Shown here: positions 1-19,952 of the stretch, one piece after another | How the letters are laid out: every line of letters starts with the position of its first letter | How positions within the stretch are numbered: position 1 is the stretch's first letter | Source of the DNA: Thaumarchaeota archaeon CSP1-1 | GTDB taxonomy: Archaea; Thermoproteota; Nitrososphaeria; Nitrososphaerales; Nitrosopumilaceae | NCBI GenBank assembly: GCA_001443365.1 | Contig: LDXL01000004.1 | Span: forward strand, 1-24,000 | Direction: 5' to 3' | Length of the DNA stretch: 24,000 nucleotides | The notes under the pieces: model-generated | What the model was told of the DNA's origin: nothing | What the model saw: the letters and a program-made list of their open reading frames with translations, nothing else | The model's database searches: none | Made by a program: the position numbers and the translations under genes

Positions 1-15
1 GGAGCATATGGTTCA

Positions 16-711
16 TTATTTGAGTATCTGTTTTGCAATGCTAATTATCTCGTCTCCGCTAAGGTCTTCTAGTCGCTTGTCTGACTCTATAACCTTTCCA
101 AACTGCTTTGCTATGTTCTGTAATTTTTTTCTCTTGTATGAAAATAGTTTGTTTACCATCTGAATTAGCTCCTTTGGAATAGTATTTTTTTGTGTTAATC
201 TCAGCACAACAGAGTCAACCTTTGGGGGTGGAGAAAAATTATTCTTGTTGACATTAATAATAGATTCAATGTCTGCTGCATGATTTACCAGTACAGATAC
301 TGCCTTTGAGTTTTTTTCTGCAATCTTTTCTGAAAACTCCTTTTGAACCATAACTACTGCCCGTCTAAATTTTTTCTGCACTAGCCACTCCATTGCGTCT
401 CTACTCTTAGAGTATGGAAGGTTTGATACAAAAATTGTAAACTTCTCTTCAGTCTTAAAGCCATCGCCGTGCAAAAGTGTCAGGTTTGTTATATCAGAAA
501 ATTTCTCCTTTGCTGTATTGTAGAGTTCTAAATCAGATTCTATTGAGATTACCTTACAAGCTTTTTCACACAATAACGGTACTAGTATGCCTTTTCCAGT
601 TCCAATCTCAAGCACTGTATCTTTTTTTGTTATTTCAGCTGCATCAACTATTTTTTTTGCAACAGATTGCGTAACTAAAAAGTGCTGGCCGAGTCGCTTT
701 CTTTTTATCAT
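16..711 (-). CDS. rsmA: 16S/18S rRNA (adenine-N6,N6)-dimethyltransferase KsgA/RsmA/Dim1
   Basis: 231 aa. N-terminal RLGQHFL, SAM-binding LEIGTGKGILV and an NLPY motif (FVSNLPYS). Last gene of the conserved archaeal L21e-RpoF-DUF655-KsgA cluster. Its ATG overlaps the upstream stop (ATGA at 708-711 on the minus strand). Confidence 0.9.
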   Translation of the reverse strand: MIKRKRLGQHFLVTQSVAKKIVDAAEITKKDTVLEIGTGKGILVPLLCEKACKVISIESDLELYNTAKEKFSDITNLTLLHGDGFKTEEKFTIFVSNLPYSKSRDAMEWLVQKKFRRAVVMVQKEFSEKIAEKNSKAVSVLVNHAADIESIINVNKNNFSPPPKVDSVVLRLTQKNTIPKELIQMVNKLFSYKRKKLQNIAKQFGKVIESDKRLEDLSGDEIISIAKQILK

Positions 712-1274
712 TTTTTAACGAAGAGGTTCATTCGAGCCTCTCCGGTTATCTCTTCCATTATTCTTTTAGCAATATGCTTTATTGGATCTTTTAGCCCAAC
801 TCTTCTCTGCAAGTCCTCAAAGCTTTCAAACTTGCGTTTCTCGCGCTCTTCTAGCATTATCTTCATGTACGTTTTCCCGATTCCAGGGATTAGCTCAAGT
901 GCATGTATTCGCGGAGTTAGCGGCTGGGAGTTGTTTAGATAGTCGATAAATCTTTTTTCGTTTTGTGTAACAATTTTTTGCACCACTCCAGAAATCTCAC
1001 TATGTGCAGTCTGGGAAATTTTTGCATATTCTAGCTTGCCTAGTACAGACTGGACCTTTGTTCGCCCTTGCTTTCCAATGTAGATTCGCTCTCCTACTTC
1101 AAACGTAGAATTTTCCACTCCAAGTACCTCAAGTAGAGTGAGTCTGTCTTCTCCTAGTGCAGTAAGAATAACTCCTTCACGTCCACGTACAGTAGATGAC
1201 TTGCCTCTCTCTACAAAGTCAAGCACGTAAGCGTACTCTTCGTATCTTCTTGGTTGGGTATATCCCCTATCCAA
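708..1274 (-). CDS. DUF655-family protein (predicted OB-fold plus helix-hairpin-helix nucleic-acid-binding protein)
   Basis: 188 aa. N-terminal EEYAYVLDF...RGK motif typical of DUF655, and a C-terminal HhH-like LELIPGIGKTYMKIM. Conserved position between rpoF and ksgA in archaea. Confidence 0.75.
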   Translation of the reverse strand: MDRGYTQPRRYEEYAYVLDFVERGKSSTVRGREGVILTALGEDRLTLLEVLGVENSTFEVGERIYIGKQGRTKVQSVLGKLEYAKISQTAHSEISGVVQKIVTQNEKRFIDYLNNSQPLTPRIHALELIPGIGKTYMKIMLEEREKRKFESFEDLQRRVGLKDPIKHIAKRIMEEITGEARMNLFVKK

Positions 1275-1291
1275 CTAAATCACCTAAAAAA

Positions 1292-1618
1292 TTACGCGTG
1301 CTCCTTGATAATCTTCAGCATTTTTTCTAGCGTTTCAGCTAAAATGAGTTTTTTCCAGCCAAATGTAAAGGAACGCAGCTCAGCTAGAGTAGTTGGTCTA
1401 ATGTTTACAATTTCTACTGCCTCTTCTTCTGTAATGTCGCACACTTTGACTAGCTCTTGTTTCATTTTCTTTGCAGCTTTTGGATCTATTTTTGCAAACT
1501 TTGAAACATAATCATAAGTCCAGCGTTGTATCTGGTCCATTTTTTCAAGATCATGTTCTTCTAAAATTTCTTTAACCTCAGAAATAGAGACTGCCTGTTT
1601 TTTCTTTACTTCTTCCAT
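1292..1618 (-). CDS. rpoF: DNA-directed RNA polymerase subunit Rpo4 (RpoF)
   Basis: 108 aa. The pattern ISEVKEILEE ... YDYVSKFAKIDPKAAKKMKQEL ... ITEEEAVEIVNIRPTTLAELR resembles archaeal RpoF. It starts 1 nt after the L21e stop, as in the conserved cluster. Confidence 0.75.
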   Translation of the reverse strand: MEEVKKKQAVSISEVKEILEEHDLEKMDQIQRWTYDYVSKFAKIDPKAAKKMKQELVKVCDITEEEAVEIVNIRPTTLAELRSFTFGWKKLILAETLEKMLKIIKEHA

Positions 1619-1619
1619 T

Positions 1620-1922
1620 CTACTTTACACCAAACGGTTTTACATGGTCTAATCTAGTGATTAAGGTTTTCGTCTTGTTTCCAAGCTTAATGTCCAATGT
1701 TACAGCTCTTCTTCCCACTTCTGTCACAACACCTACTTTCCCATGATATCTTCGATGTGGAAGTGACTTGTGTTGTCTTGGGTCTATAATGACTAGGGCT
1801 CGATCACCTACATTGTATTTCCTTAGCAAAAATGATACTCCTCTTGGAGCATCCTTTGTCATTACGGCTCTAGACTTGTGTCTAAATCCATAAGAGTGAC
1901 CAGATGGCTTTTTAGTAGTCAT
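1620..1922 (-). CDS. rpl21e: 50S ribosomal protein L21e
   Basis: 100 aa. N-terminal KKPSGHSYGFRHKSR and an SH3-like core (GDRALVIIDP ... YHGKVGVV) characteristic of eL21. Confidence 0.9.
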   Translation of the reverse strand: MTTKKPSGHSYGFRHKSRAVMTKDAPRGVSFLLRKYNVGDRALVIIDPRQHKSLPHRRYHGKVGVVTEVGRRAVTLDIKLGNKTKTLITRLDHVKPFGVK

Positions 1923-1956
1923 ATCTGACTAGCAGTCGGAGCCCTTAATTTAACAT

Positions 1957-2997
1957 TTACTCGATATTTTCAGAATCTATATCTTCAGTAGATACATCTG
2001 ATTTTTTTCCAGGTGCTTTCTTTTTCTTTGTACCATCTTCTGGATCAACTACTCCTGCTTCAGAGAGTGCAAAGATTACCTCATGCTCTGGATGGTGTGG
2101 GCTGTCAACCATTCTTGCAATTCTCTTTTTGCCAGATTTTTTAAAGTAAATTCTATAGGTGCTAGTGTGTGCTACAACATTTCCTCCAATGGGTCTAGTT
2201 GGGTCTCCAAAGAATACGTCAGGGGATGCCATAACTTGGTTTGTTGCAAGTGCAGCACAGTTGTATGTTTCAGCAATTCTTACTAGTAGATGAACAAAGT
2301 GATTTAGTTTTTGTTGACGTCCTGCCAGAGTTCCGCGTCCAAGATATTCTGCACGGAATAATCCTACTGCAGAGTCTGATATGATTAATTTAATATTATT
2401 TTCTTTAATTACTGCTCCGGCTTCCTCAAGTATTAGAATTTGGTGTGAGCTGTTGTATGCTCGTGCTACAATGATTTTTTCAAGTACTTGTTCAGGATTC
2501 ATCCCTTGAGCCTTTGCTATTGAGACAACTCTTTCTGGCCTAAATGTTCCTTCGGAGTCAATGTACAAGACTCCTCCGTCTAGTCCGCCTTCTTCTTTTG
2601 TTTTTTGAACCATTACACACATGGTATGACAGAACTGCGTTTTTCCACAGCCAAACTCGCCATAAACCTCAGTTAGTGCTTGTGTTTCTAGTCCCCCATC
2701 AAGTAATAGATCAAGGCACTCTGTACCAGTTGAGATTCTTCCTATCTCTTGTCGTCTCTTGTAAATTTCAGTAGCAGTAACAAACTCTTGCGCAATTAAT
2801 CCCTGCTCTACTAGCTGCAGTCTGGATTTGTTTACTATTTTTTCTGCAGTTTCCCTATCCATGCCAGTAAGCTCTGCAATCTCTACTGGACCGCGAACTA
2901 TTAGATCCATTATATTATGAACGCCTGCGTCTTCTAGTTTTTTAGTAGTAACAGGACCGACTCCTTCAAGGCTGTCTAATCGTAAATCTTCAACCAT
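1957..2997 (-). CDS. radA: DNA repair and recombination protein RadA (RecA/Rad51 family)
   Basis: 346 aa. N-terminal HhH (LEGVGPVTTKKLEDAGV), Walker A GEFGCGKTQ, Walker B LIISDS, and Rad51/RadA-like LYIDSEGTFRPER. It carries an extra charged C-terminal tail. Confidence 0.95.
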   Translation of the reverse strand: MVEDLRLDSLEGVGPVTTKKLEDAGVHNIMDLIVRGPVEIAELTGMDRETAEKIVNKSRLQLVEQGLIAQEFVTATEIYKRRQEIGRISTGTECLDLLLDGGLETQALTEVYGEFGCGKTQFCHTMCVMVQKTKEEGGLDGGVLYIDSEGTFRPERVVSIAKAQGMNPEQVLEKIIVARAYNSSHQILILEEAGAVIKENNIKLIISDSAVGLFRAEYLGRGTLAGRQQKLNHFVHLLVRIAETYNCAALATNQVMASPDVFFGDPTRPIGGNVVAHTSTYRIYFKKSGKKRIARMVDSPHHPEHEVIFALSEAGVVDPEDGTKKKKAPGKKSDVSTEDIDSENIE

Positions 2998-3188
2998 GTC
3001 CCTAGGGTAAGTATCATGATATCTTATAGTATTCTTTGTGATGATCGCTGACTATATGTGAAGAATTAATTGATGATATTGTAACTTTAAGACGGTATTA
3101 AGGCAAAATCCTATCAGCAAACGAGTTTATCGACAAAGCCCCCGCGTATGCACGAAAATTTCGCACTAACTAGCGTTATGATCAGGGT

Positions 3189-3800
3189 ATGATTTGTTGG
3201 AAATTTGTTAAGTATTACAAAGGCTTGTTTAAAACAATGAGAAAATCTACTGGTATCATTATAGGCTTTTTAGTAATCCTCATTATAATTTTATTAAGTA
3301 TTGGATTTGGTACAGCTGGTTTGCTACCCTCTATTTTGAATACGCATAAACAAATGATTGTAGATGCAACTATTGTGGTTCCCCCCATGCAATATGTTAT
3401 TTTTCCAATAGATCCTCATTCATCTTACAATAGTTGTAAAATTCAAGGAACATTTTCGGCTGGAGGTGGTAGTGATGACATAAGAGTATATGTTGTAGAC
3501 AAACAAGGTTTTGACGCTTTTAGGAGAGATGATAAATTTAACGCATATTTTTCTACACCACAACAAATAGGTGGTGATATTGCTGCAACAGTACCATGTG
3601 ATAGAACAATTTACTTAGTTTATGATAATTCATTCTCTCTTATCACAGGTAAAACAGTAACCACTAAAGTTGATTTTGAATTTGAACAAATTTTCCAAGA
3701 TCCAAATAAGTTATATTTAGACGATGACATTTTTCAGCCCTCAATTCCAGAAAAACCCGTTGGAGATCCTAATGATGGCTATTATGATCCTGGCGAATAA
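3189..3800 (+). CDS. hypothetical membrane-anchored protein with an extracytoplasmic beta-rich domain
   Basis: 203-aa ORF. An alternative and perhaps better start is the ATG at 3237 (MRKSTGIIIGFLVILIIILLSIGF, a basic N-terminus followed by one TM helix). I recognised no family. Confidence 0.55.
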   Translation: MICWKFVKYYKGLFKTMRKSTGIIIGFLVILIIILLSIGFGTAGLLPSILNTHKQMIVDATIVVPPMQYVIFPIDPHSSYNSCKIQGTFSAGGGSDDIRVYVVDKQGFDAFRRDDKFNAYFSTPQQIGGDIAATVPCDRTIYLVYDNSFSLITGKTVTTKVDFEFEQIFQDPNKLYLDDDIFQPSIPEKPVGDPNDGYYDPGE

Positions 3801-3936
3801 AGTAGAGGGGATTTTAAAAAACTAGTTTTAATGATTCTTTATGCAACTTGGTTCATCATATCCACTTAGCCATTTCTTCTCAAGGAAATATTTTTCAATT
3901 TAGAAACTTATAAGATAGGAAAATTAATCATGAAAA

Positions 3937-4353
3937 TTATCTCTGCTTTGCTCCAACACCATCTTTAATATTTATCTTGATTACCTTTCCCTGAGATTCT
4001 TCCGAGTCCACCTCAGGTGCCACATCTTCAGCTTCAGTAATTGTTAGATTTTCTTCAGGTACTTGAGAATTTATTTTTAATTCTACTAGTTCGTTTTTTA
4101 ATGCGCTCATTTCTTTCTTTAATGCATCAAGCTCTGCGTTTGTATCATCTATTTTTTTTTGTGCATCAGAATTTGAAATAAAATCTTGAGCCTCTTCTAA
4201 TGTAGGAACTATTGGGATGTCTTCTGGCAGAGTTTGAGAGTTTTCTATTGATGAAGGGTCGATTAAAACCTCGTCAGGCAATGATGCAATTCCAATAATG
4301 ACAGATAGCACTAGTACCGTTATACTTAACCCTATGACAGGGCGTCTTTTCAT
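3937..4353 (-). CDS. hypothetical signal-anchored coiled-coil protein
   Basis: 138 aa. N-terminal MKRRPVIGLSITVLVLSVIIGIA (TM or signal anchor) followed by a heptad-like segment AELDALKKEMSALKNELVELK. I recognised no family. Confidence 0.5.
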   Translation of the reverse strand: MKRRPVIGLSITVLVLSVIIGIASLPDEVLIDPSSIENSQTLPEDIPIVPTLEEAQDFISNSDAQKKIDDTNAELDALKKEMSALKNELVELKINSQVPEENLTITEAEDVAPEVDSEESQGKVIKINIKDGVGAKQR

Positions 4354-4534
4354 AATGATAAAATATATAATTTAACTTAGATACGAATGTGTTTAGTTTT
4401 TTTGAACAAACTATTCACAAACGCATTATTTGCAAATTGTAAAGTGATTTAACAAAATTGGTATCGAATCAATTCAGATTTTGTTCAAAGTTACTTTAAG
4501 ACTCAAGTTATTGGCATTATTCTAATCGATGAAT

Positions 4535-4717
4535 TTATCGTCTCTTTCGTCTCTGGCCTGGTTTGTTTTGTCCTGGGAATCTGTTTAAAACAAGTCTTTT
4601 TCTAAAGTTACTTTTGTGCTTTAGACCAGAGTTTGTGCCAATTTTTTTCCGTCCTTCTACCTTTGGTGTCTGACCTCTTACCTTTCCTGCCTTTGTAAGC
4701 GAGCCGTGGGTTGCCAT
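4535..4717 (-). CDS. rps30e: 30S ribosomal protein S30e
   Basis: 60 aa, very basic. HGSLTKAGKVRGQTPKV is the hallmark N-terminus of eS30. Confidence 0.85.
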   Translation of the reverse strand: MATHGSLTKAGKVRGQTPKVEGRKKIGTNSGLKHKSNFRKRLVLNRFPGQNKPGQRRKRR

Positions 4718-4760
4718 GATTAATCACTTGATAAAATTGAATTTATGCTTTTGTATTACT

Positions 4761-6488
4761 CTACCAGTACTTTACCTTAATTTTTTCAATCACTCGCTCG
4801 TGCTCTCCGCCTCTTTTTCTAGCATATCTTTCCATTGCTCCTAGTGGTACACCACCAAGTGACCTTGCTATGAGATTAAACATGCTCTTCATTACAGAGC
4901 CGTTTCTTGCAGTCTTTACCATGAACTTTTGAATTCCATACTTGAAGTTGTGTTGCCAAGTCTTGTACATGACACCTAACTGAGCAGGATCCATTTCATT
5001 TCCAATATTGAAAAATTCAGATTTCTCCAGCAATCCAATTGGTACAAAAGTAAGAGGAGTTGCAGTAAACATTGCATCTGGTTGCTCTCTTTCTAGCTCA
5101 CTGATTAGTTGTATAGTTTCCCAAGAGTCCTCTGGCGTTTCATCATTGTCTAGTCCCATGATTAATGTAAATGCAGGAACCCAATAGTTTTCATTTAGTG
5201 TTTTGACTGCCTCTTTGACTAGCCAGTGCCATTCCTCAGGCTTGTATGGGGCAAGTTTTCTGTCTGCATATTTTTCGATCAGTCTACGGCTGCCTGTCTC
5301 AAGGCCACACTGAACACCAATAAAGTTTCCAGGGCCTGCCTTGATTATTTTTGAGAGTTTTGGAAGCAGCTTTTCATCAGCAATTGCTCCTGCAAGTGTA
5401 CCATGTGTGGGATTTGTATGCTCTACACCTGTAGACATTATTGCAGTAAAGAGCTCTACTAGTGCCTCTCGGTTTGGCTCCATTTGTTTTGTTGTTCTAG
5501 GGTCCATTCCATAAACAAAAATATCATCACTTTGAATCCATGCAGATGTCTCTCCACCTTTTTTCAAGTTTACCTCAATTTCCTTTTTGACTTTCTCAGG
5601 AGAATAGTATCGCAATGATCGTAGTGTAACATCACAAAACTTGCATCCACGTCCGCATCCACGCATTACCTCAACCATTCCGTGCATGCTTGGCTCTACA
5701 ATTTCTGGAATGTCATCAAGATCTGGTCTGTCCCAGAAATTAACAAATCTTCCATGAATCGTTTTTTCACCGCGCTTGAACTCTTTGATGTCTACCTTAA
5801 AGTCACTTCTTTTTCTAAAGGGATCCATGTTTTCAAATTCTCCATTCATTAGATAATTAAAAAAGCGTCCAGCATGACCGTCTATTTCTGGTGCAATGCC
5901 GCCAAGCTCTCCTTCTAAAACTGCATACAGGCCATATTCTTCAATTTTTTCTGGATCATAGTTGTATTGCCATGTTCCTGAAGCGCCAGCAATTACCTTT
6001 GCATTGCTGTGATTTTTTTTCTTTGCAGCATTAATTTTTCTGTGAAGGTCTCTACAATAGTATTCGTCATAAGACATTTGCTTGCGTCCATAAGTAAATG
6101 TCATAGTAACTGGGCCCATGCCAAGTGGGTCCATCTCATATGTTCCAACAACTTGAGTTTCTGGACCAATGAATTTTTCAATGTGATCAGGATGAGCGAC
6201 AACTACCTCGTTTCGTTTAAAGCCGTCACGCAACAGACCTGCCTCGACTTTTCTTAACCCATATGGAGCATAGTTTGCAATTCCATTTGTGTGAGATGTA
6301 GTATTGCAGATAAAGTCAAACAAAATCTTTGGTGTAACTTGTTGTCCTAGGATTTTATACCAAAAGTCGCTTTTTGGTCTGTCAGGGTCAATGGCTGGCG
6401 CACAACCAAAAAATGTCGCAAGCGATATTCCACGATATGGAGACATTAATGTACGATCTGCAGTTAACACAATTTTTGGATTGCCCAT
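4761..6488 (-). CDS. radical SAM enzyme, large (575 aa), substrate unknown
   Basis: CxxxCxxC cluster motif in VMRGCGRGCKFCDV at about residue 285. It has a long N-terminal domain (KIVLTADRTLMSPYRG...) and a C-terminal extension. The subfamily cannot be assigned by eye. Confidence 0.8.
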   Translation of the reverse strand: MGNPKIVLTADRTLMSPYRGISLATFFGCAPAIDPDRPKSDFWYKILGQQVTPKILFDFICNTTSHTNGIANYAPYGLRKVEAGLLRDGFKRNEVVVAHPDHIEKFIGPETQVVGTYEMDPLGMGPVTMTFTYGRKQMSYDEYYCRDLHRKINAAKKKNHSNAKVIAGASGTWQYNYDPEKIEEYGLYAVLEGELGGIAPEIDGHAGRFFNYLMNGEFENMDPFRKRSDFKVDIKEFKRGEKTIHGRFVNFWDRPDLDDIPEIVEPSMHGMVEVMRGCGRGCKFCDVTLRSLRYYSPEKVKKEIEVNLKKGGETSAWIQSDDIFVYGMDPRTTKQMEPNREALVELFTAIMSTGVEHTNPTHGTLAGAIADEKLLPKLSKIIKAGPGNFIGVQCGLETGSRRLIEKYADRKLAPYKPEEWHWLVKEAVKTLNENYWVPAFTLIMGLDNDETPEDSWETIQLISELEREQPDAMFTATPLTFVPIGLLEKSEFFNIGNEMDPAQLGVMYKTWQHNFKYGIQKFMVKTARNGSVMKSMFNLIARSLGGVPLGAMERYARKRGGEHERVIEKIKVKYW

Positions 6489-6564
6489 CTTTTACCCTAG
6501 ACGAGCTTACTTTTCTAATTGATTTTAAACCTTCTGGGTATAGTTAAGGATGGTTCAGAGATAT

Positions 6565-7383
6565 CTAGTAGGCCTCTAAGATACCTGCCTTGTTTCGGTG
6601 TGTGTGACCAAATTCACTTTTTGAGAGTAAAGTCTTGCCATCAAATATTGTTCCATCCTTACACACTAGAAGGTCATTTACACAGCAACTGCCACAAATT
6701 CCTACTCCACACTTCATCATTCGCTCAAGGCTTGCTTCTACAAACATACCTTTGCTAGTTGCTATCGAAATAACCTTTGACATCATCAATTCTGGCCCGC
6801 AGGTATACACTGCATCAAATTTTGTGTCCTGACAGAGTTTATCCATTATATCAGTGACAAGCCCTTTTTGTCCATAGGTGCCGTCTTCTGTTGCAACTAT
6901 TACCTGGTGCTTGTTTTTATCAAGCAGCCTATTTGCATAGTCTTCAAAGAATACCTCATTTTTTGTTTTTGCCCCCATGATTAGAGTAACATCGTCTGTT
7001 GGTGTAAAAAATGTCAATAATCGCACTAGTGGAACAAGGCCTGTTCCACCTCCAACTAGCAAAAGCTTGCCTTTTTTGATAGTAAATGAATTGCCATATG
7101 GACCCCGTACACCAATTGATTCTCCAACTTTAACATTGTATAATGCAGTAGAAGATTGGCCATATTTTCGTATAGTAAATGCAGCTTTTCCCTTTTCTGG
7201 TGAAATCATTACACTCATTGGAAGCTCGTTTACACCTGGAACCCAGACCATTGCAAATTGGCCAGGCAAAACATCACACAGTACGTCATCAGAAAAAGTT
7301 AAAGTCCTAACTGTAGGTGTCTCGTCTGTAACTTTTTCAATTTTACAAATTGTTTGGCGATTAGAATTTCTTTGCACGACCAA
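6565..7383 (-). CDS. pyrK: dihydroorotate dehydrogenase (class 1B) electron-transfer subunit PyrK
   Basis: 272 aa. FAD/NAD-binding LLLVGGGTGLVPL and the C-terminal 2Fe-2S motif MKCGVGICGSCCV. There is no ATG near the N-terminus, so the start must be TTG (7383) or GTG (7377), which overlaps the pyrD 3' end. Confidence 0.85.
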   Translation of the reverse strand: MVVQRNSNRQTICKIEKVTDETPTVRTLTFSDDVLCDVLPGQFAMVWVPGVNELPMSVMISPEKGKAAFTIRKYGQSSTALYNVKVGESIGVRGPYGNSFTIKKGKLLLVGGGTGLVPLVRLLTFFTPTDDVTLIMGAKTKNEVFFEDYANRLLDKNKHQVIVATEDGTYGQKGLVTDIMDKLCQDTKFDAVYTCGPELMMSKVISIATSKGMFVEASLERMMKCGVGICGSCCVNDLLVCKDGTIFDGKTLLSKSEFGHTHRNKAGILEAY

Positions 7384-8287
7384 CCATGTCCTCTATTTTG
7401 GAAAATCCCTTTTTTTCCATGTACTGGAGTATTCCTTTGTTAATGTCATCAAAAACTGAAATCCAATTGTCCCCAACTGCACTGCCAATCTGAACTGCCG
7501 ATGCTCCTGCAAGAATAAATTCCACTGCGTCATCCCAGCTAGAGATTCCGCCACAACCAATTATTGGGATATCATATTGTGATGAGATTTCATATACGCA
7601 TCGCACCGCAACTGGTTTAATTGGAGTGCCAGACAAGCCGCCTATTTTGTTGCTAAGTATTGGTCGCTCTGTTTCAACATCTATTGCCATAGCACGCAAT
7701 GTGTTAATGGCAGTAATTGCATCAATTCCTGCCTTACATGCAGCATCAACTGTATCTAGATAGTTAGTTGTACCAAGGCCAACCTTTGCAATTACAGGAA
7801 CATCAGTTTTTGATTTTACAGTTTTTACAATTTTTTTAACCAGGTCTGGGTCGTCCCCTACTTCTAGTCCAACTTTAGCTACATGTGGGCATGACAGGTT
7901 TAGCTCAAAGGCTAGAACCTTAATGTCTTCAAATTGTTTTATCATAAATTCAAAGTCTTTTGGTATAGAACCAACAAGAGATACAATGATTGGTACATCC
8001 TTGTTAGATGAAATCATTTTTGCAAAGTTTGGAGCACCAGGGTTTGATAGACCAACTGCATTTATCCATCCGCCTCCCTTTACACCAAATATTGTTGGAT
8101 TTGGATATCCATCCCATGGCTCTTTACTAAGTGACTTGCTCACAACAGCTCCTGCCCCTGCCTGATAAATTCGATTAAAAACTTCTAGTGAGATTCCTAA
8201 AATCCCAGACGCTAAAATTGTCGGTCTTGCCAGCTTTATAGAGCCAATAGATGTGAAAAGGCTTGGATTCACTTTGATTCCTAGCAA
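7361..8287 (-). CDS. pyrD: dihydroorotate dehydrogenase catalytic subunit PyrD (class 1B)
   Basis: 308 aa. Motifs PTILASG, NLSCPH and GCGGISSWDDAVEFILAGASAVQIGSA. There is no N-terminal ATG; candidate starts are TTG 8287 or GTG 8272. Confidence 0.9.
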   Translation of the reverse strand: MLGIKVNPSLFTSIGSIKLARPTILASGILGISLEVFNRIYQAGAGAVVSKSLSKEPWDGYPNPTIFGVKGGGWINAVGLSNPGAPNFAKMISSNKDVPIIVSLVGSIPKDFEFMIKQFEDIKVLAFELNLSCPHVAKVGLEVGDDPDLVKKIVKTVKSKTDVPVIAKVGLGTTNYLDTVDAACKAGIDAITAINTLRAMAIDVETERPILSNKIGGLSGTPIKPVAVRCVYEISSQYDIPIIGCGGISSWDDAVEFILAGASAVQIGSAVGDNWISVFDDINKGILQYMEKKGFSKIEDMVGRAKKF

Positions 8288-8356
8288 ACCGTTCTCATAT
8301 AACAGTTAATTTCTATTTGGTACGTTTTTTAATGGCTCTTAGAGGATTATTTAATT

Positions 8357-9571
8357 ATGTATTCTGTTATTCTAACCGAATTAGGTATAGCTGTATTTGA
8401 AAATGAAAAATGTCTAAAGACATTTCCTTTTTTAGAACCTGTTGAAGATTATATTTTTGTAAAAAAGGGAGAATCACGGCTAAGTGATTTGGCAAAATTC
8501 CTATCAAATATAGAAAAAGGAATCGAGGTAAATGATCATGCGCTATTTGCAATACTCAAGAAAAAATCAATTAATGTTCAGTTGATGAGTGAAGAAGACA
8601 GTGCAAAAATCCAGTCATCAAAACCAAAAATACTACAGGCTGCAGGATTTGCAGAAGATGAAGATGATGCAATGGCAAAACTGAGAGAGTTTGCAATTTC
8701 GCTATCATCATCTAAAGTTTCAGAGGTTTCCCAAAGTCCAGATCTACATATTATCCAGGCAATTAATTCACTAGATGAAACCGATAAAATAATCAATGCA
8801 ATGAGCTCTCGACTACGAGAATGGTATGGATTGCATTTTCCCGAACTTGATAATATAATAGATAGCATAAACGGCTATTCACAAATTGTTTTGGCAGGAA
8901 GGCGAGATGATTTATCAAAAACTATCTACGAAGATGCAGGATTTCCAGAATCCAAAGTCGAGATGCTTACTCTAGTCACTGATAAAAGTCGCGGGGGCGA
9001 TATTTCAGATGCAAACCTTGCAATTGTTCAGACTCTGGCAAAACAAATACTTGAGCTATTTGATCTAAGAAAGAGTATAGAAGAGCATGTTGAAACAGAA
9101 ATGAAAAAGATAGCTCCAAATCTTTCTGTCATATTAGGTACTGCAGTTGGTGCAAGAATTCTTGCCCGTGCTGGAAGTCTCAAAAATCTTGCAGTAATGC
9201 CTGCAAGTACAATTCAGGTTTTAGGAGCAGAAAAAGCACTGTTTCGTTCGCTCAAGACAGGAGCACAGCCTCCAAAGCACGGACTATTATTCCAACATGC
9301 ACTAGTACATGCAGCACCACGTTGGCAGCGCGGAAAAATTGCAAGAGCTGTTGCAGGAAAGGCTGCCATTGGAGCTCGTGTAGACTTTCATGGTGGCGGT
9401 CTTAATCAGATGTTACTAGATAAGCTAAACATCAGGGTAGTTGAGATTGAAAAAAAATACGTAGATGCCCCACCTCCAAGGGAGATAAAGCCCGAGCCAT
9501 TTAGAGAAAGATTTAGATCAAAATTCAATAAACCCAAGGGTAAAAAGCGAAAGAAGTTTGGAAGAAGATAA
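8357..9571 (+). CDS. nop5: C/D box sRNP core protein Nop5 (Nop56/58)
   Basis: 404 aa. Nop domain motifs (LREWYGLHFPEL, APNLSVILGTAVGARILARAGSLKNLAVMPASTIQVLGAEKALFR, HGLLFQH) and a basic KKRKK tail. Immediately followed by fibrillarin. Confidence 0.9.
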   Translation: MYSVILTELGIAVFENEKCLKTFPFLEPVEDYIFVKKGESRLSDLAKFLSNIEKGIEVNDHALFAILKKKSINVQLMSEEDSAKIQSSKPKILQAAGFAEDEDDAMAKLREFAISLSSSKVSEVSQSPDLHIIQAINSLDETDKIINAMSSRLREWYGLHFPELDNIIDSINGYSQIVLAGRRDDLSKTIYEDAGFPESKVEMLTLVTDKSRGGDISDANLAIVQTLAKQILELFDLRKSIEEHVETEMKKIAPNLSVILGTAVGARILARAGSLKNLAVMPASTIQVLGAEKALFRSLKTGAQPPKHGLLFQHALVHAAPRWQRGKIARAVAGKAAIGARVDFHGGGLNQMLLDKLNIRVVEIEKKYVDAPPPREIKPEPFRERFRSKFNKPKGKKRKKFGRR

Positions 9572-10235
9572 GAATTTTTTTTGGGTTAAAGTAGATGGGC
9601 AACAAAAACTGGCAACTGAAAATCTAGTTATTGGAAACCAGGTTTACCAAGAAAAACTTGTTACAAAAAAAGGCATAGAGTACAGACTTTGGGATCCATT
9701 TAGGAGCAAACTTGCAGCAGCGATTATGAATGGATTAGAAATTTTTCCATTTGAAGAAAAATCAAAGGTGCTATACCTTGGTGTCTCCACTGGAACTACT
9801 GTCAGCCACATATCAGATATTGTAGGACCGCGAGGAATAATTTTTGGAGTCGAGCACGCAAGCAGAGTTGCAAGAGACTTTTTAGATAGAGTGGCAAGTC
9901 ACAGAAAAAATATTATTCCAATATTACAAGATGCAAGACAGCCACAGCAATATTTTTCTGTGTACAGTAAGGTCGATGTTGTTTATGTAGACATTGCACA
10001 ACCTGATCAAACAGATATAGCAATTAAAAATTGTAAAATGTTTCTAAAAGACGGAGGCTACATATTTTTAGTAATAAAAACTAGAAGCATTGATGTAACA
10101 AAGGCACCTAAAAAAATAATTGAAAATGAAATAAACAAATTAAGAGAAAATTTTGAAATTATTCAAGTAATTGATCTTATTCCATACGACAAGGATCATG
10201 CAATGGTTATTGCAAAGTATTTAGAAAAAAACTAG
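9558..10235 (+). CDS. flpA: fibrillarin-like rRNA/tRNA 2'-O-methyltransferase
   Basis: 225 aa. Motifs YRLWDPFRSKLAAAI, VLYLGVSTGTTVSHISDIVG and VVYVDIAQPDQ. It overlaps nop5 by 14 nt. The only start compatible with a full N-terminus is TTG at 9558. Confidence 0.9.
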   Translation: MEEDKNFFWVKVDGQQKLATENLVIGNQVYQEKLVTKKGIEYRLWDPFRSKLAAAIMNGLEIFPFEEKSKVLYLGVSTGTTVSHISDIVGPRGIIFGVEHASRVARDFLDRVASHRKNIIPILQDARQPQQYFSVYSKVDVVYVDIAQPDQTDIAIKNCKMFLKDGGYIFLVIKTRSIDVTKAPKKIIENEINKLRENFEIIQVIDLIPYDKDHAMVIAKYLEKN

Positions 10236-17268: not shown

Positions 17269-17790
17269 TTATTTAACAATAAATGTCTCACTTGTAGTTA
17301 GGGTTTTTTTGAATTCTATGTCATTGATTTCAGCAACAATCTCGTATTGACCACTGTCTATTATTTCAGAAAATTCATCATCTATTGGCATCACGAGGTT
17401 ATTTTTTGAATAACATTGACCAAAAAATGCACTTTGAGTCACAACTTCTTTGGGAGTTTTTGAGATATCATAAATTGTTATGTATAAATCTCCACAATCA
17501 AAAATTGGATCACTAACTGAAACTGTAATTTTGATTGGTTGTGACTTTGATAATTCGTCATCTAATCCAATAATCGTAATTGCGCCCGAAGAAACTACAA
17601 TTTTATCCGAAAATTCAAAGGGCCACATATCAAGTTCTCGCTCAGGAGATTTTAGAACTTCACCTAGAACTATACTACCAAAAAATATTGAAATCACTGC
17701 TGGAAATAAAAAGACGACAAAAGCAATGTTTTTAACAGCCAATTCGAATTTAACAGCGCTAATTCCTTTATATCTATTTAGTAATGACAA
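17269..17790 (-). CDS. hypothetical membrane-anchored extracytoplasmic protein
   Basis: 173 aa. It has a single N-terminal TM helix (IAFVVFLFPAVISIFFGSIVLG) and then a beta-rich domain. No recognisable family. Divergent from the ATPase-Toprim gene. Confidence 0.5.
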   Translation of the reverse strand: MSLLNRYKGISAVKFELAVKNIAFVVFLFPAVISIFFGSIVLGEVLKSPERELDMWPFEFSDKIVVSSGAITIIGLDDELSKSQPIKITVSVSDPIFDCGDLYITIYDISKTPKEVVTQSAFFGQCYSKNNLVMPIDDEFSEIIDSGQYEIVAEINDIEFKKTLTTSETFIVK

Positions 17791-17849
17791 AAGTGTTCAG
17801 GATAATTATGTAGTATAGGTTAAAACATAGAATCGTAATAGCGACTAGG

Positions 17850-19952
17850 ATGAGACTAAGAAAATTTAGAGTTCGTGCATTTCGGTGCATTCATGATTCT
17901 GGGGAAATCAAAGTAGGAGACTTGGCAGCATTTGTTGGAAGAAATGAAAGTGGAAAAACAACAATCTTGCAGGGTCTTACATTATTGAACAAAGATGAGA
18001 ACGTTTCTAATCTTGATCTATGTGATGAGATGTCTGAAGAGTTAAAAAATGAGATAAATATTGCTGATGGGGATTTTGATCTAACAATAAATGAAACACA
18101 AATGATTAAGGATAAATTTCCAAATATCCCTGAAATTAAAAAATTAAGAATTTTCCGTACCAATAAAAAACAAAAAATCCAATATGACTTTGGTCCAATA
18201 AAAATAAGCAACGAAGAAAATAAAGCATTAAACTCTTGGGAAAACTTTGCAGAAAATATACTCAATTTTGTTGAAACTATTCCTAATCACATTAGAATAA
18301 GATTAGATACAACATTCTTTGAAGGGTCTCTACCAGAGAGTCGAGAAATTTTTGATTCTCAAATGAGAGAATTTGGAAATACGATTCATGTTTTAGCATC
18401 TGAAGAACCACAAATAATTTCAGAGTGGGAAAAAGTTTCCAAAAATGCTGATGCTGCTTTTGATAAGATGTTGGTAGGAACCACAGAACTTACTGCTTTA
18501 GAAAACTTTATTGAAGAATATCTACACCCACGTTTTGTTTATTTTTCTGATTATAAGAAAATCTATGGAAATATCAATCTAAATGAATATGTCAAAGAAT
18601 CAAAAGGTTATAGAACGGAAGGAATAGAGTTTGTTGAAGAATTTGACAAAGCAGAAACTGTTAGAAACTTATTTTATTTAGCTGAATTAGATATTGAAGG
18701 ATTAGAAGAGTTTCATAATAGTCCTTCAAAATTGATAAAGTATCTCAATACTGCAAGCAATAGATTAACTACAAGACTCAATCCTGCCTGGAAAGGGGAT
18801 CCAATACATGTTGATTTAAGATACAATCCTGGAAATATCTTGAGTGTTGTAATTTCTGATATTCATAAAGATGGTACAGTGACCAATACCGGATTGTTAA
18901 ATAGAAGAGCTGAGGGTTTCAAATGGACATTTTCTTTTATAGTTAATTTTGCTGCAGAGACTCAAAGAGCAGAACTTAAGGAGGCCATATTACTGCTTGA
19001 TGAACCTGCACGAAACTTACATCCTACCCAACAACGAGGAATCTCTGATCTGTTAAAGAACTTAGCTGGCTCAAACCAAGTCCTTTATGCAACCCACTCT
19101 CCTTTCATGATATTTGATTATACTCCAGGAAATTTACTAGTAGTTGAGCTTGATAAGAGAAAGCACCTAAGCAAGATATACTATGATTATTGGAATGCTA
19201 GTGATGAAACTCTCACACCGATTTTGTATGGATTATCAAGAGGTCTAGTGGAATCTATCGTAGATAGAGAAATTGGTTCTAATTCAAGACCAGTAATAAT
19301 TGTTGAAACAATGTCTGATGCGATGTATCTAAATGCGTTTGATAAATTTCTAGAAGATCCCAATATCTCAATGAATCCGCTAAACGTTGTCGCTGCATAT
19401 AGTAAAAATTCAGTATTACCGCTTGCAATATTTTATCGAGATCATGGATATAAAACCTTCATCTTACTTGACAACAGTGAAGAATCAAAACATATCTCGA
19501 CTCAGTTGACTGCAAATGATTTCTCTCAAGTACAAACTATATTTTTTGAGTCTGGTGGAAAACAAATACAATCAATAGAGGATTATTTACATATTGAAGA
19601 CTACCTTTATGCCGTAAACCAGACATACGAGATCATGCTAAGAAGGGAAGGATTTAGTAATTTAGCTAAAGAGGATGTTTTAGCAAGGGGGAAGAAGGGA
19701 ATTGTTGAGAATCTTAATGCAATCTGGATGGAACATAAAGATGAAGGATGGGGCAAATTCAACAACGAAGAAATTACAAGATATATTTGTGAAAAAATTG
19801 CTTTAAATGAAATTGACTTTTTATCTGATAAATCAAAGGAACAGTTAAGAACGCTGTATAGGTTAATTGCAGAAAGAATTCGCCAACATCAAAATCTAAT
19901 TTCAAGCGGGAATCTAGATAAATTACATATCAAGCGAAAGTTTGATCAATGA
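17850..19952 (+). CDS. ABC/AAA-type ATPase fused to a C-terminal Toprim-like domain (OLD-family / PARIS-like nuclease candidate)
   Basis: 700 aa. ATPase motifs: Walker A GRNESGKT, signature-like RRAEGFKWTFSFIVNF, Walker B LLLDEP and H-loop LYATHSP, with a long helical insertion between Walker A and the signature. The C-terminal region has VIIVETMSDAMY ... SKNSVLP ... FILLDNSEE, arranged like the Toprim E ... DxD. No helicase gene lies nearby. Confidence 0.55.
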   Translation: MRLRKFRVRAFRCIHDSGEIKVGDLAAFVGRNESGKTTILQGLTLLNKDENVSNLDLCDEMSEELKNEINIADGDFDLTINETQMIKDKFPNIPEIKKLRIFRTNKKQKIQYDFGPIKISNEENKALNSWENFAENILNFVETIPNHIRIRLDTTFFEGSLPESREIFDSQMREFGNTIHVLASEEPQIISEWEKVSKNADAAFDKMLVGTTELTALENFIEEYLHPRFVYFSDYKKIYGNINLNEYVKESKGYRTEGIEFVEEFDKAETVRNLFYLAELDIEGLEEFHNSPSKLIKYLNTASNRLTTRLNPAWKGDPIHVDLRYNPGNILSVVISDIHKDGTVTNTGLLNRRAEGFKWTFSFIVNFAAETQRAELKEAILLLDEPARNLHPTQQRGISDLLKNLAGSNQVLYATHSPFMIFDYTPGNLLVVELDKRKHLSKIYYDYWNASDETLTPILYGLSRGLVESIVDREIGSNSRPVIIVETMSDAMYLNAFDKFLEDPNISMNPLNVVAAYSKNSVLPLAIFYRDHGYKTFILLDNSEESKHISTQLTANDFSQVQTIFFESGGKQIQSIEDYLHIEDYLYAVNQTYEIMLRREGFSNLAKEDVLARGKKGIVENLNAIWMEHKDEGWGKFNNEEITRYICEKIALNEIDFLSDKSKEQLRTLYRLIAERIRQHQNLISSGNLDKLHIKRKFDQ

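Follow-up and report, generated by a model that had tools for sequence, protein, structure and literature searches.

Cran1, a class 5 protein of the OLD family, in which an ATPase is joined to a Toprim domain, belongs to a clade that is restricted to Sulfolobales and whose gene tree recapitulates the species tree; the protein is essential, cyclically expressed and chromatin-associated, acts as a nickase and an ATPase, and has no detected antiviral effect (PMC12796447). Its essential role in the cell cycle was discovered because of this evolutionary pattern (PMC12796447). The other described members with which we compared our findings are the class 1 proteins (P2 Old, Thermus scotoductus (Ts) OLD 6P74, Vibrio cholerae OLD and Escherichia coli YbjD), the class 2 structures (Bp OLD 6NK8, Xcc OLD 6NJW and GajA of the Gabija system, 8X5I/8SM3) and PARIS, a class 4 OLD system composed of AriA and AriB. 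Casposons of thaumarchaea, too, carry accessory OLD genes. Here, we analysed a window of 24,000 nucleotides (nt), namely positions 1 to 24,000 of contig LDXL01000004.1 of Thaumarchaeota archaeon CSP1-1 (Nitrosopumilaceae). The product of its gene at 17850-19952 is a member of the OLD family, in which an ATPase is followed by a Toprim domain and then by a C-terminal helical domain. This OLD gene is part of the vertically inherited core of Nitrosopumilaceae, and on balance it is probably a domesticated enzyme with a conserved cellular role. A literature search returned no paper that links OLD to Nitrosopumilus core genes or describes a Nitrosopumilaceae-wide clade; the one relevant mention is that of the accessory casposon genes.

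The N-terminal part of the protein matches Pfam AAA_15 over amino acids (aa) 1-421 (single sequence, E = 1.5e-23; score 84.5 bits, cut-off 32.1) as well as AAA_21 (E = 2e-13), and every motif quoted in the initial annotation was located in the 700-aa translation of the open reading frame (ORF; Table 1). The landmarks of the ATPase are Walker A (G30-T37), Walker B (D384-E385), the D-loop His H391 and the H-loop His H416, and a long insertion at aa ~60-330 within the ATPase is helical in the AlphaFold model. For the single sequence, the match of aa 479-542 to PF20469, the model for OLD-like Toprim, stays under the cut-off (E = 0.0027, 18.6 bits against 23.2). Since a single-sequence phmmer search against PDB recovered the ATPase motifs as the sole match, a family profile was needed for the comparison with known structures. 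The underlying alignment comprises 42 members of the wider family, with 23-88% identity to the window protein, and 27 of these 42 match PF20469 (best E = 1.6e-10). The profile matched Ts OLD 6P74 with E = 1.1e-24 in an alignment that is unbroken from Walker B to the DxD motif of Toprim (profile positions 383-538, chain positions 275-433); GajA, PtuA, Rad50 and AriA (5e-7 for AriA) followed. A PADLOC scan, which the initial annotation had proposed, gave AriA (5.7e-23, ATPase alone, aa 1-421), Old (8.9e-20) and GajA (1.8e-15, alignment up to aa ~557) as the best models.

The predicted structures were compared with PDB as well. The full-length AlphaFold model has a predicted local distance difference test (pLDDT) score of 82.6, and its best Foldseek matches are Ts OLD 6P74 (3e-13) and GajA (2.5e-10). 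For a separate model of aa 440-700 (pLDDT 83.3, predicted template modelling (pTM) score 0.74), the top five matches are C-terminal regions from OLD proteins belonging to class 2, 6NJW and 6NK8 (probability 0.99-1.0, E ~1e-3, 223-241 of 261 columns aligned), with GajA next; the template modelling (TM) scores to class 2 OLD and GajA structures are modest, 0.38-0.47. Because the PF20469 matches in the relatives, the profile alignment with 6P74, the full-length model and the model of aa 440-700 agree, the C-terminal part can be identified as an OLD-type Toprim region. The combination of ATPase and Toprim that the initial annotation had read from the sequence is thus borne out; the C-terminus folds like Toprim, and the model, compared with Thermus OLD and GajA as the annotation had proposed, resembles both.

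Which of the described classes does the protein resemble most? In the model, Toprim appears as a four-stranded beta-alpha core (aa 482-565) without an extra helix between alpha3 and beta4, and it is followed by a helical domain that is predicted confidently for aa 582-690 (pLDDT ~90 up to aa ~680). As modelled, the Toprim lacking the alpha3-beta4 helix is class-1-like, while the helical domain behind it is class-2-like. With class 1 proteins it shares the stand-alone gene, the domain order, the absence of the Toprim insert helix and a non-canonical D-loop His (H391 aligns with 'LHP' of Ts OLD), and 6P74 is the best match in both the sequence-profile and the whole-model comparison. Ts OLD, however, ends without a C-terminal helical domain (PMC7049728), whereas ~120 helical residues follow Toprim here, and the surroundings of class 1 genes vary and these genes take part in phage conflicts, whereas the Nitrosopumilaceae gene is fixed and syntenic. 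Toprim with a helical C-terminal region is shared with class 2, and the GajA hidden Markov models align through Toprim, but there is no UvrD/GajB-like helicase downstream and DxD is replaced by DxS/T. Gabija was rejected as an identification: neither the window nor any of the syntenic loci has a helicase neighbour, and a gene for a 713-aa protein (g713) lies downstream throughout. PARIS has a similar ATPase, AriA, but a DUF4435/AriB-type domain was not detected (no PF14491 match at E <= 1 in the 700-aa protein) and the C-terminal fold is OLD-like. The protein is therefore neither a clean class 1 OLD, because of its helical domain, nor class 2, because no GajB helicase accompanies it, nor PARIS, because it has no AriB domain.

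OLD nucleases have two metal sites, which were defined by Schiltz et al. (PMC7049728). In Ts OLD, metal A is assigned to E377, D431 and D433 and metal B to D381, S478 and E480, with R487 as the basic residue and H283 of the D-loop 'LHP' as a further catalytic residue; in Bp OLD, the corresponding residues are E400, D455 and D457, then E404, T506 and E508, and K562 (PMC7049728). We mapped the window protein onto both by sequence pattern and spacing and counted conservation in 80 orthologues; the candidate ligands are given in Table 1. All ATPase motif residues are invariant in these orthologues, as is D578, and E545, two residues past position 543, is kept in 79. Across the 42 members of the wider family, E486 and D490 (consensus 'VEGxTD') and E577 are invariant, while D541 and D578 reach at least 90% conservation. 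Position 543 is D in a sister clade of 691-aa proteins ('DND') and E in bacterial relatives ('DNE'); moreover, the near-invariant Gly of 'VEGxTD' is T487 here, and 'PAGG' has become 'AAYSK'. No Arg or Lys stands at the spacing equivalent to Ts R487, where D584 occupies the spot, and the invariant R598 and K616 (at least 90%) of the helical domain are candidates for the transition-state basic residue. Residues are conserved in both domains; therefore, both active sites are under selection, with one putative metal-A ligand altered in a lineage-specific manner.

A key question is whether the gene is an occasional acquisition or a permanent constituent of these genomes. A scan with the OLD protein, in which each species was represented by one genome, found relatives in 208 genomes, and the loci analysed are the best 80 of these 208; the conservation described here applies to the family Nitrosopumilaceae, which is narrower than the whole order. 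At 73-98% identity, these best 80 proteins represent Nitrosopumilus, Nitrosarchaeum, Nitrosotenuis and other Nitrosopumilaceae; the assignment of the window to this family agrees with 98% identity of its protein to those of metagenome-assembled genomes so named. The gene order Trm1 - RrmJ/FtsJ - g238 - g173 - OLD - g713 - APRT - MTAP - g94 was found in every sufficiently flanked locus, and all complete orthologue copies (79/79) are intact, with lengths of 693-700 aa. Since these loci had been obtained via OLD itself, metagenome contigs anchored on RrmJ were scanned as a control for ascertainment bias. Of the contigs that extend 2 kb or more from RrmJ towards OLD, 35 in number, every one has OLD in place and none shows an empty site, and several shorter contigs carry the OLD N-terminus at the expected distance; RrmJ identity across the 35-contig set ranged from 68 to 100%. 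The initial annotation had regarded the gene as an accessory single-gene defence system and proposed to look for presence/absence polymorphism. No such polymorphism exists among the 35 neighbour-anchored contigs, and the gene is syntenic in the 80 genomes wherever the flanks allow and in 35/35 contigs. By the yardstick of the initial annotation itself, for which a universally conserved syntenic position across the order would speak against an accessory role, the accessory interpretation is not supported at the level of Nitrosopumilaceae.

The evolutionary rates of the locus were assessed by the ratio of nonsynonymous to synonymous substitutions (dN/dS) between each window gene and nine relatives. 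For OLD, the ratio was 0.04-0.09, compared with 0.03-0.12 for APRT, 0.07-0.14 for MTAP, 0.09-0.13 for Trm1 and 0.15-0.40 for the lineage-specific flanking genes g173 and g713. OLD protein distances correlated with those of the four concatenated housekeeping neighbours at r = 0.965 (41 genomes, 820 pairs), on par with the correlations of these neighbours among themselves (r 0.92-0.96), and OLD evolves more slowly than they do (mean distance 0.176 versus 0.232). The guanine-cytosine (GC) content of the OLD gene (0.31-0.34) likewise matches that of its flanks. As protein distances, dN/dS and GC resemble those of the housekeeping neighbours and flanks, the OLD gene of Nitrosopumilaceae is a vertically inherited core gene under strong purifying selection. 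Neither an island context nor horizontal transfer was found among the close relatives, as judged from the 80 syntenic genomes, the distances and dN/dS.

This pattern recalls Cran1: both are archaeal proteins with ATPase and Toprim, distributed lineage-wide, inherited vertically, encoded outside defence islands and retaining both catalytic sets. The trait of lineage-wide vertical inheritance that marks class 5 OLD (clade U11) is thus found in Nitrosopumilaceae as a pattern, not as membership of the class. Cran1 is a protein of ~57 kDa, whereas the present one has 700 aa; Cran1 has an alpha-helical insert within Toprim, whereas our model has none between alpha3 and beta4; and the cran1 gene lies in a putative operon with a gene for a membrane protein, whereas here a divergent g173 and a downstream surface-protein gene, g713, adjoin. 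Orthology was rejected, as BLASTP against a 399-aa portion of the Cran1 sequence aligned aa 1-49 and 380-421, i.e., the ATPase motifs only. The Walker A and signature motifs of the Nitrosopumilaceae family are not found in Dataset EV1 of PMC12796447, searched over ~400 aa per sequence; this dataset does hold other, class 1 OLD proteins from Nitrososphaerota.

Relatives outside Nitrosopumilaceae present a different picture. An exhaustive search of 1.84 billion representatives placed every Nitrosopumilaceae orthologue in a single 50% cluster. The full-length relatives that come next were singletons or tiny clusters at 36-41% identity, and a profile search added members down to 31%; those with a taxonomic name are bacteria and belong to Methylacidiphilales, Acidiferrales/Acidoferrum, Planctomycetales and Acidobacteria. 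For most of the 36-41% relatives, bacterial or archaeal origin was judged from the neighbouring genes. Four of the six contexts examined are island-like, with defence, toxin-antitoxin or integrase/mobile genes: a phage-type integrase and a Y1 transposase (P0136); Peptidase_M78, DUF4411, a DNA methylase and helicase/MZB (P0127); a Type IIG restriction-modification gene with HicB/PemK (P0123); and an archaeal contig with MJECL32/33 plasmid genes (P0121). The remaining two contexts are bacterial; one has Peptidase_M78 among many small unannotated genes (P0289) and one is unremarkable, with genes for DNA polymerase B, a MacB/FtsX transporter and PadR (P0287). Viral or proviral IMG/VR contigs (L167-L188) carry relatives of 22-32% identity, often full length, none of them near the Nitrosopumilaceae clade, which fits a mobile, phage-associated lifestyle of the wider OLD group. 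This wider group is sporadic in the manner of accessory genes and often lies in defence or mobile islands, and the Nitrosopumilaceae clade is unlike it in that respect.

What, then, does a fixed OLD protein do? We consider it somewhat probable that the gene encodes a domesticated core OLD with a conserved role in cellular DNA handling, present in single copy and fixed in the Nitrosopumilaceae ancestor. Its own ancestor would have belonged to the sporadic stand-alone OLD group, several members of which lie in defence or mobile islands; one copy would have become fixed in the ancestor of Nitrosopumilaceae and would have been passed on vertically since then, in single copy and in syntenic position, as part of the core genome. 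Nucleotide binding and hydrolysis by the ATPase would most likely gate the Toprim site, which would nick or cleave DNA through two-metal catalysis. The selective value would most likely be cellular, in genome maintenance, replication, chromosome handling or segregation, repair or the cell cycle, a role suggested by analogy with Cran1 of Sulfolobales. Because the gene is fixed, slow-evolving and syntenic across the examined Nitrosopumilaceae, a cellular role is a better fit than that of a mobile antiviral gene. A more tentative idea is that domestication took place independently in Nitrosopumilaceae and made a defence-type OLD nuclease an enzyme indispensable for chromosome handling, e.g., an ATP-gated nickase at work in replication, segregation or repair. 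Several points weigh against a domesticated cellular enzyme. The analogy with Cran1 is one of evolutionary pattern between non-orthologous proteins; most Nitrosopumilaceae have S or T where DxD has its second Asp, so that nuclease activity could be altered; universal conservation alone would also be compatible with a fixed immune function; and no full-length relative above 41% identity was seen outside the Nitrosopumilaceae cluster, and any cellular role would therefore be lineage-specific. A connection with the loss of Rad50/Mre11/HerA/NurA in mesophilic ammonia-oxidizing archaea (AOA) was also considered; it is speculative, and no usable statement was found in the literature.

The alternatives differ in how far they depart from this domesticated cellular OLD. 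In one of them, a stand-alone OLD nuclease of class-1-like organisation was fixed for good in the core genome of Nitrosopumilaceae as a constitutive effector against viruses or plasmids, and its ATPase would still sense infection while its nuclease would degrade nucleic acid, as the initial annotation had proposed except for the accessory nature. This seems to us rather unlikely, although several points favour it: the characterised bacterial and phage OLD proteins are all described as acting in defence, the best PADLOC models are AriA, Old and GajA, several of the closest outside relatives lie in defence, toxin-antitoxin or mobile islands, distant relatives occur on viral contigs, and the catalytic residues are conserved. 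Defence genes are typically patchy, horizontally transferred and gathered in islands. The Nitrosopumilaceae gene, however, shows no presence/absence polymorphism (35/35), keeps its place amid tRNA/rRNA methyltransferase and purine-salvage genes, evolves with dN/dS of 0.04-0.09 and in step with housekeeping distances (r = 0.965), and has no neighbour that scores above noise with defence models; moreover, the sole tested archaeal OLD of a like evolutionary pattern, Cran1, showed no antiviral effect (PMC12796447).

The two remaining alternatives concern the C-terminal part. The replacement of the Ts D433/Bp D457 equivalent by S (57/80) or T (22/80), T487 in place of the Gly of 'VEGxTD' and 'AAYSK' in place of 'PAGG' might mean that Toprim chemistry was lost or changed and that the protein is an ATPase-driven DNA-binding or structural protein, such as a clamp or sensor of the SMC/RecF/RecN type; its ATPase is related to Rad50, SMC and RecF, and for the class 1 protein YbjD of E. 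coli, Toprim is reported to be dispensable for the phenotypes and the ATPase to be essential (PMC13261556). We regard this as improbable, since E486, D490, D541, S575, E577 and D578 are invariant and E545 is kept in 79/80, which is unexpected for a dead site, since the sister clade retains the canonical DND, and since Ser or Thr can bind metal, as do S478 of Ts OLD and T506 of Bp OLD at metal B (PMC7049728). Most improbable of all is a fused PARIS, an option raised by the initial annotation, in which AriA and AriB in one polypeptide would cleave tRNA upon a viral trigger. AriA is the top PADLOC model, though for the ATPase only (aa 1-421), and there is a weak match to the fused AriAB model (8e-11, versus 6e-23 for AriA and 9e-20 for Old); this AriAB alignment stops at aa 496, DUF4435 is missing at E <= 1, the C-terminal model resembles class 2 OLD C-terminal regions and GajA instead of AriB, and the family profile prefers 6P74 (1e-24) to AriA (5e-7).

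The surroundings of the gene are described next (Table 1). Among the window neighbours, no helicase, reverse transcriptase or AriB gene adjoins OLD, and no neighbour gene matched a PADLOC model above noise; the sole match, that of a 184-aa gene ~3.6 kb upstream to LmuB, is sub-noise (E = 0.003, no passing stretch). The stand-alone nature of the gene stated in the initial annotation was thereby confirmed, with no helicase or other known defence component adjoining it. Rfam and tRNA scans across the 24,000-nt window found nothing. Downstream, g713 encodes a putative surface protein with a weak match to the S-layer protein SlaB (E = 7e-14, far under the cut-off); it is fast-evolving (33-50% identity across genera, dN/dS ~0.2-0.3), yet always lies immediately 3' of OLD, and is probably a cell-surface or S-layer component. 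The divergent g173 is absent from the 691-aa OLD clade (L086, L102, L103, L118, L120, L121 and L128), which is 70% identical, syntenic and abundant (in a cluster of 787 members) and in which at least one protein, P0397 of L086, has the canonical Toprim 'DND' in place of 'DNS/T'; therefore, g173 is no obligatory partner of OLD.

The region between g173 and OLD deserves separate mention. A TATA-like box, GTTAAAAC, occupies positions of about -31 to -24 relative to the ATG and is retained in 80/80 upstream sequences; its consensus is GTTAAA(T/A)C, and it is roughly equidistant from the start codons of g173 and OLD. Mean column conservation across genera at positions -45 to -1 is 0.86, versus 0.56-0.66 where other genes of the block are separated by intergenic DNA, and exceeds even that of some coding stretches. 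An in-frame TAG stands directly before the ATG in the consensus and in most sequences, while the window has AGG there. Judged from these features, the upstream region is probably a core promoter, shared with the divergent g173, whose mRNA would be leaderless or have a short leader on the OLD side, and the intergenic region as a whole may act as a promoter for both genes or as a site for a regulator.

Some further observations concern other genes of the window. The N-terminal part of g238 has a Lys/Glu-rich repeat, KKEEKKIK(A/V)PSKKEEKK, that is variable among relatives, while the C-terminal half (aa ~106-238) is 65-100% identical, with four Cys within the last ~40 residues; the protein has no Pfam, NCBIfam or PADLOC match, and RrmJ is always next door. 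A Tubulin/FtsZ-family GTPase gene is directly followed by a gene for a predicted coiled-coil protein, and this pair is kept beside Trm1 in close relatives (L089-L092, L098). The GC content of the window is ~0.38-0.41 over most of positions 1-10000, with a dip to 0.32-0.33 near 3000-4500, and ~0.30-0.37 thereafter; the gene strand switches near 8.3 kb.

Table 1 Features of the OLD gene, its product and the neighbouring region in the window
Feature	Window positions	Strand	Residues (aa)	Basis or description
Complete OLD-family ATPase-Toprim gene	17850-19952	+		ATG start, 700 aa; ORF call, Pfam, PADLOC and PDB matches
ABC/SMC-like ATPase	17850-19169	+	1-~440	AAA_15 match; motifs invariant in 80 sequences
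Motif GRNESGKT			30-37	
Motif RRAEGFKWTFSF			352-363	
Motif LLLDEP			381-386	
Motif YATHSP			413-418	
Toprim core	19281-19592	+	~478-581	PF20469 match at aa 479-542; wider-family matches; beta-alpha pattern in model
Motif VIIVETMSDAMYLNAF			482-497	
Motif SKNSVLP			518-524	
Motif FILLDNSEE			537-545	
Candidate metal A ligand (Ts E377/Bp E400)			E486	80/80
Candidate metal A ligand (Ts D431/Bp D455)			D541	80/80
Candidate metal A ligand (Ts D433/Bp D457)			S/T543	S 57, T 22, G 1 of 80
Candidate metal B ligand (Ts D381/Bp E404)			D490	80/80
Candidate metal B ligand (Ts S478/Bp T506)			S575	80/80
Candidate metal B ligand (Ts E480/Bp E508)			E577	80/80
C-terminal helical domain	19593-19949	+	~582-700	Predicted model; Foldseek alignments to 6NJW and 6NK8
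Conserved upstream region, putative promoter	17806-17849	+		Between divergent g173 and OLD
TATA-like box	17819-17826			
g713, putative surface protein, 713 aa	20042-22183	+		N-terminal hydrophobic segment, MG2 and immunoglobulin-like repeats
g173, small single-pass protein	17269-17790	-		Divergent from OLD
g238, 238 aa	16498-17214	-		
Tubulin/FtsZ-family GTPase, 472 aa	12245-13663	+		Pfam Tubulin, E = 3e-18
Predicted coiled-coil protein, 184 aa	13679-14233	+		Weak matches to an archaea-specific SMC-related protein, E = 6e-4, and to LmuB, E = 3e-3

OLD proteins are regarded as effectors of antiviral defence, and an automated pipeline would list this gene accordingly. In Nitrosopumilaceae, it belongs to the syntenic core of the ammonia oxidizers that dominate in marine and soil habitats and is constrained like their tRNA-modification and purine-salvage enzymes, which calls for caution against counting it in the "defensome" of AOA. 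The function of a domesticated OLD enzyme could thus be studied in a lineage independent of the first one, and the contrast with its sporadic bacterial relatives (31-41% identity), several of which lie in defence or mobile islands, is a natural comparison for the changes that accompany fixation, with the change of DxD to DxS/T, the loss of the GG motif and the highly conserved promoter as candidates. If the domestication is real, it would be the second convergent case, Cran1 of Sulfolobales being the first, and would concern an archaeal lineage that is among the most abundant on Earth, and the repurposing of OLD proteins for cellular functions would be a recurrent theme in archaea.

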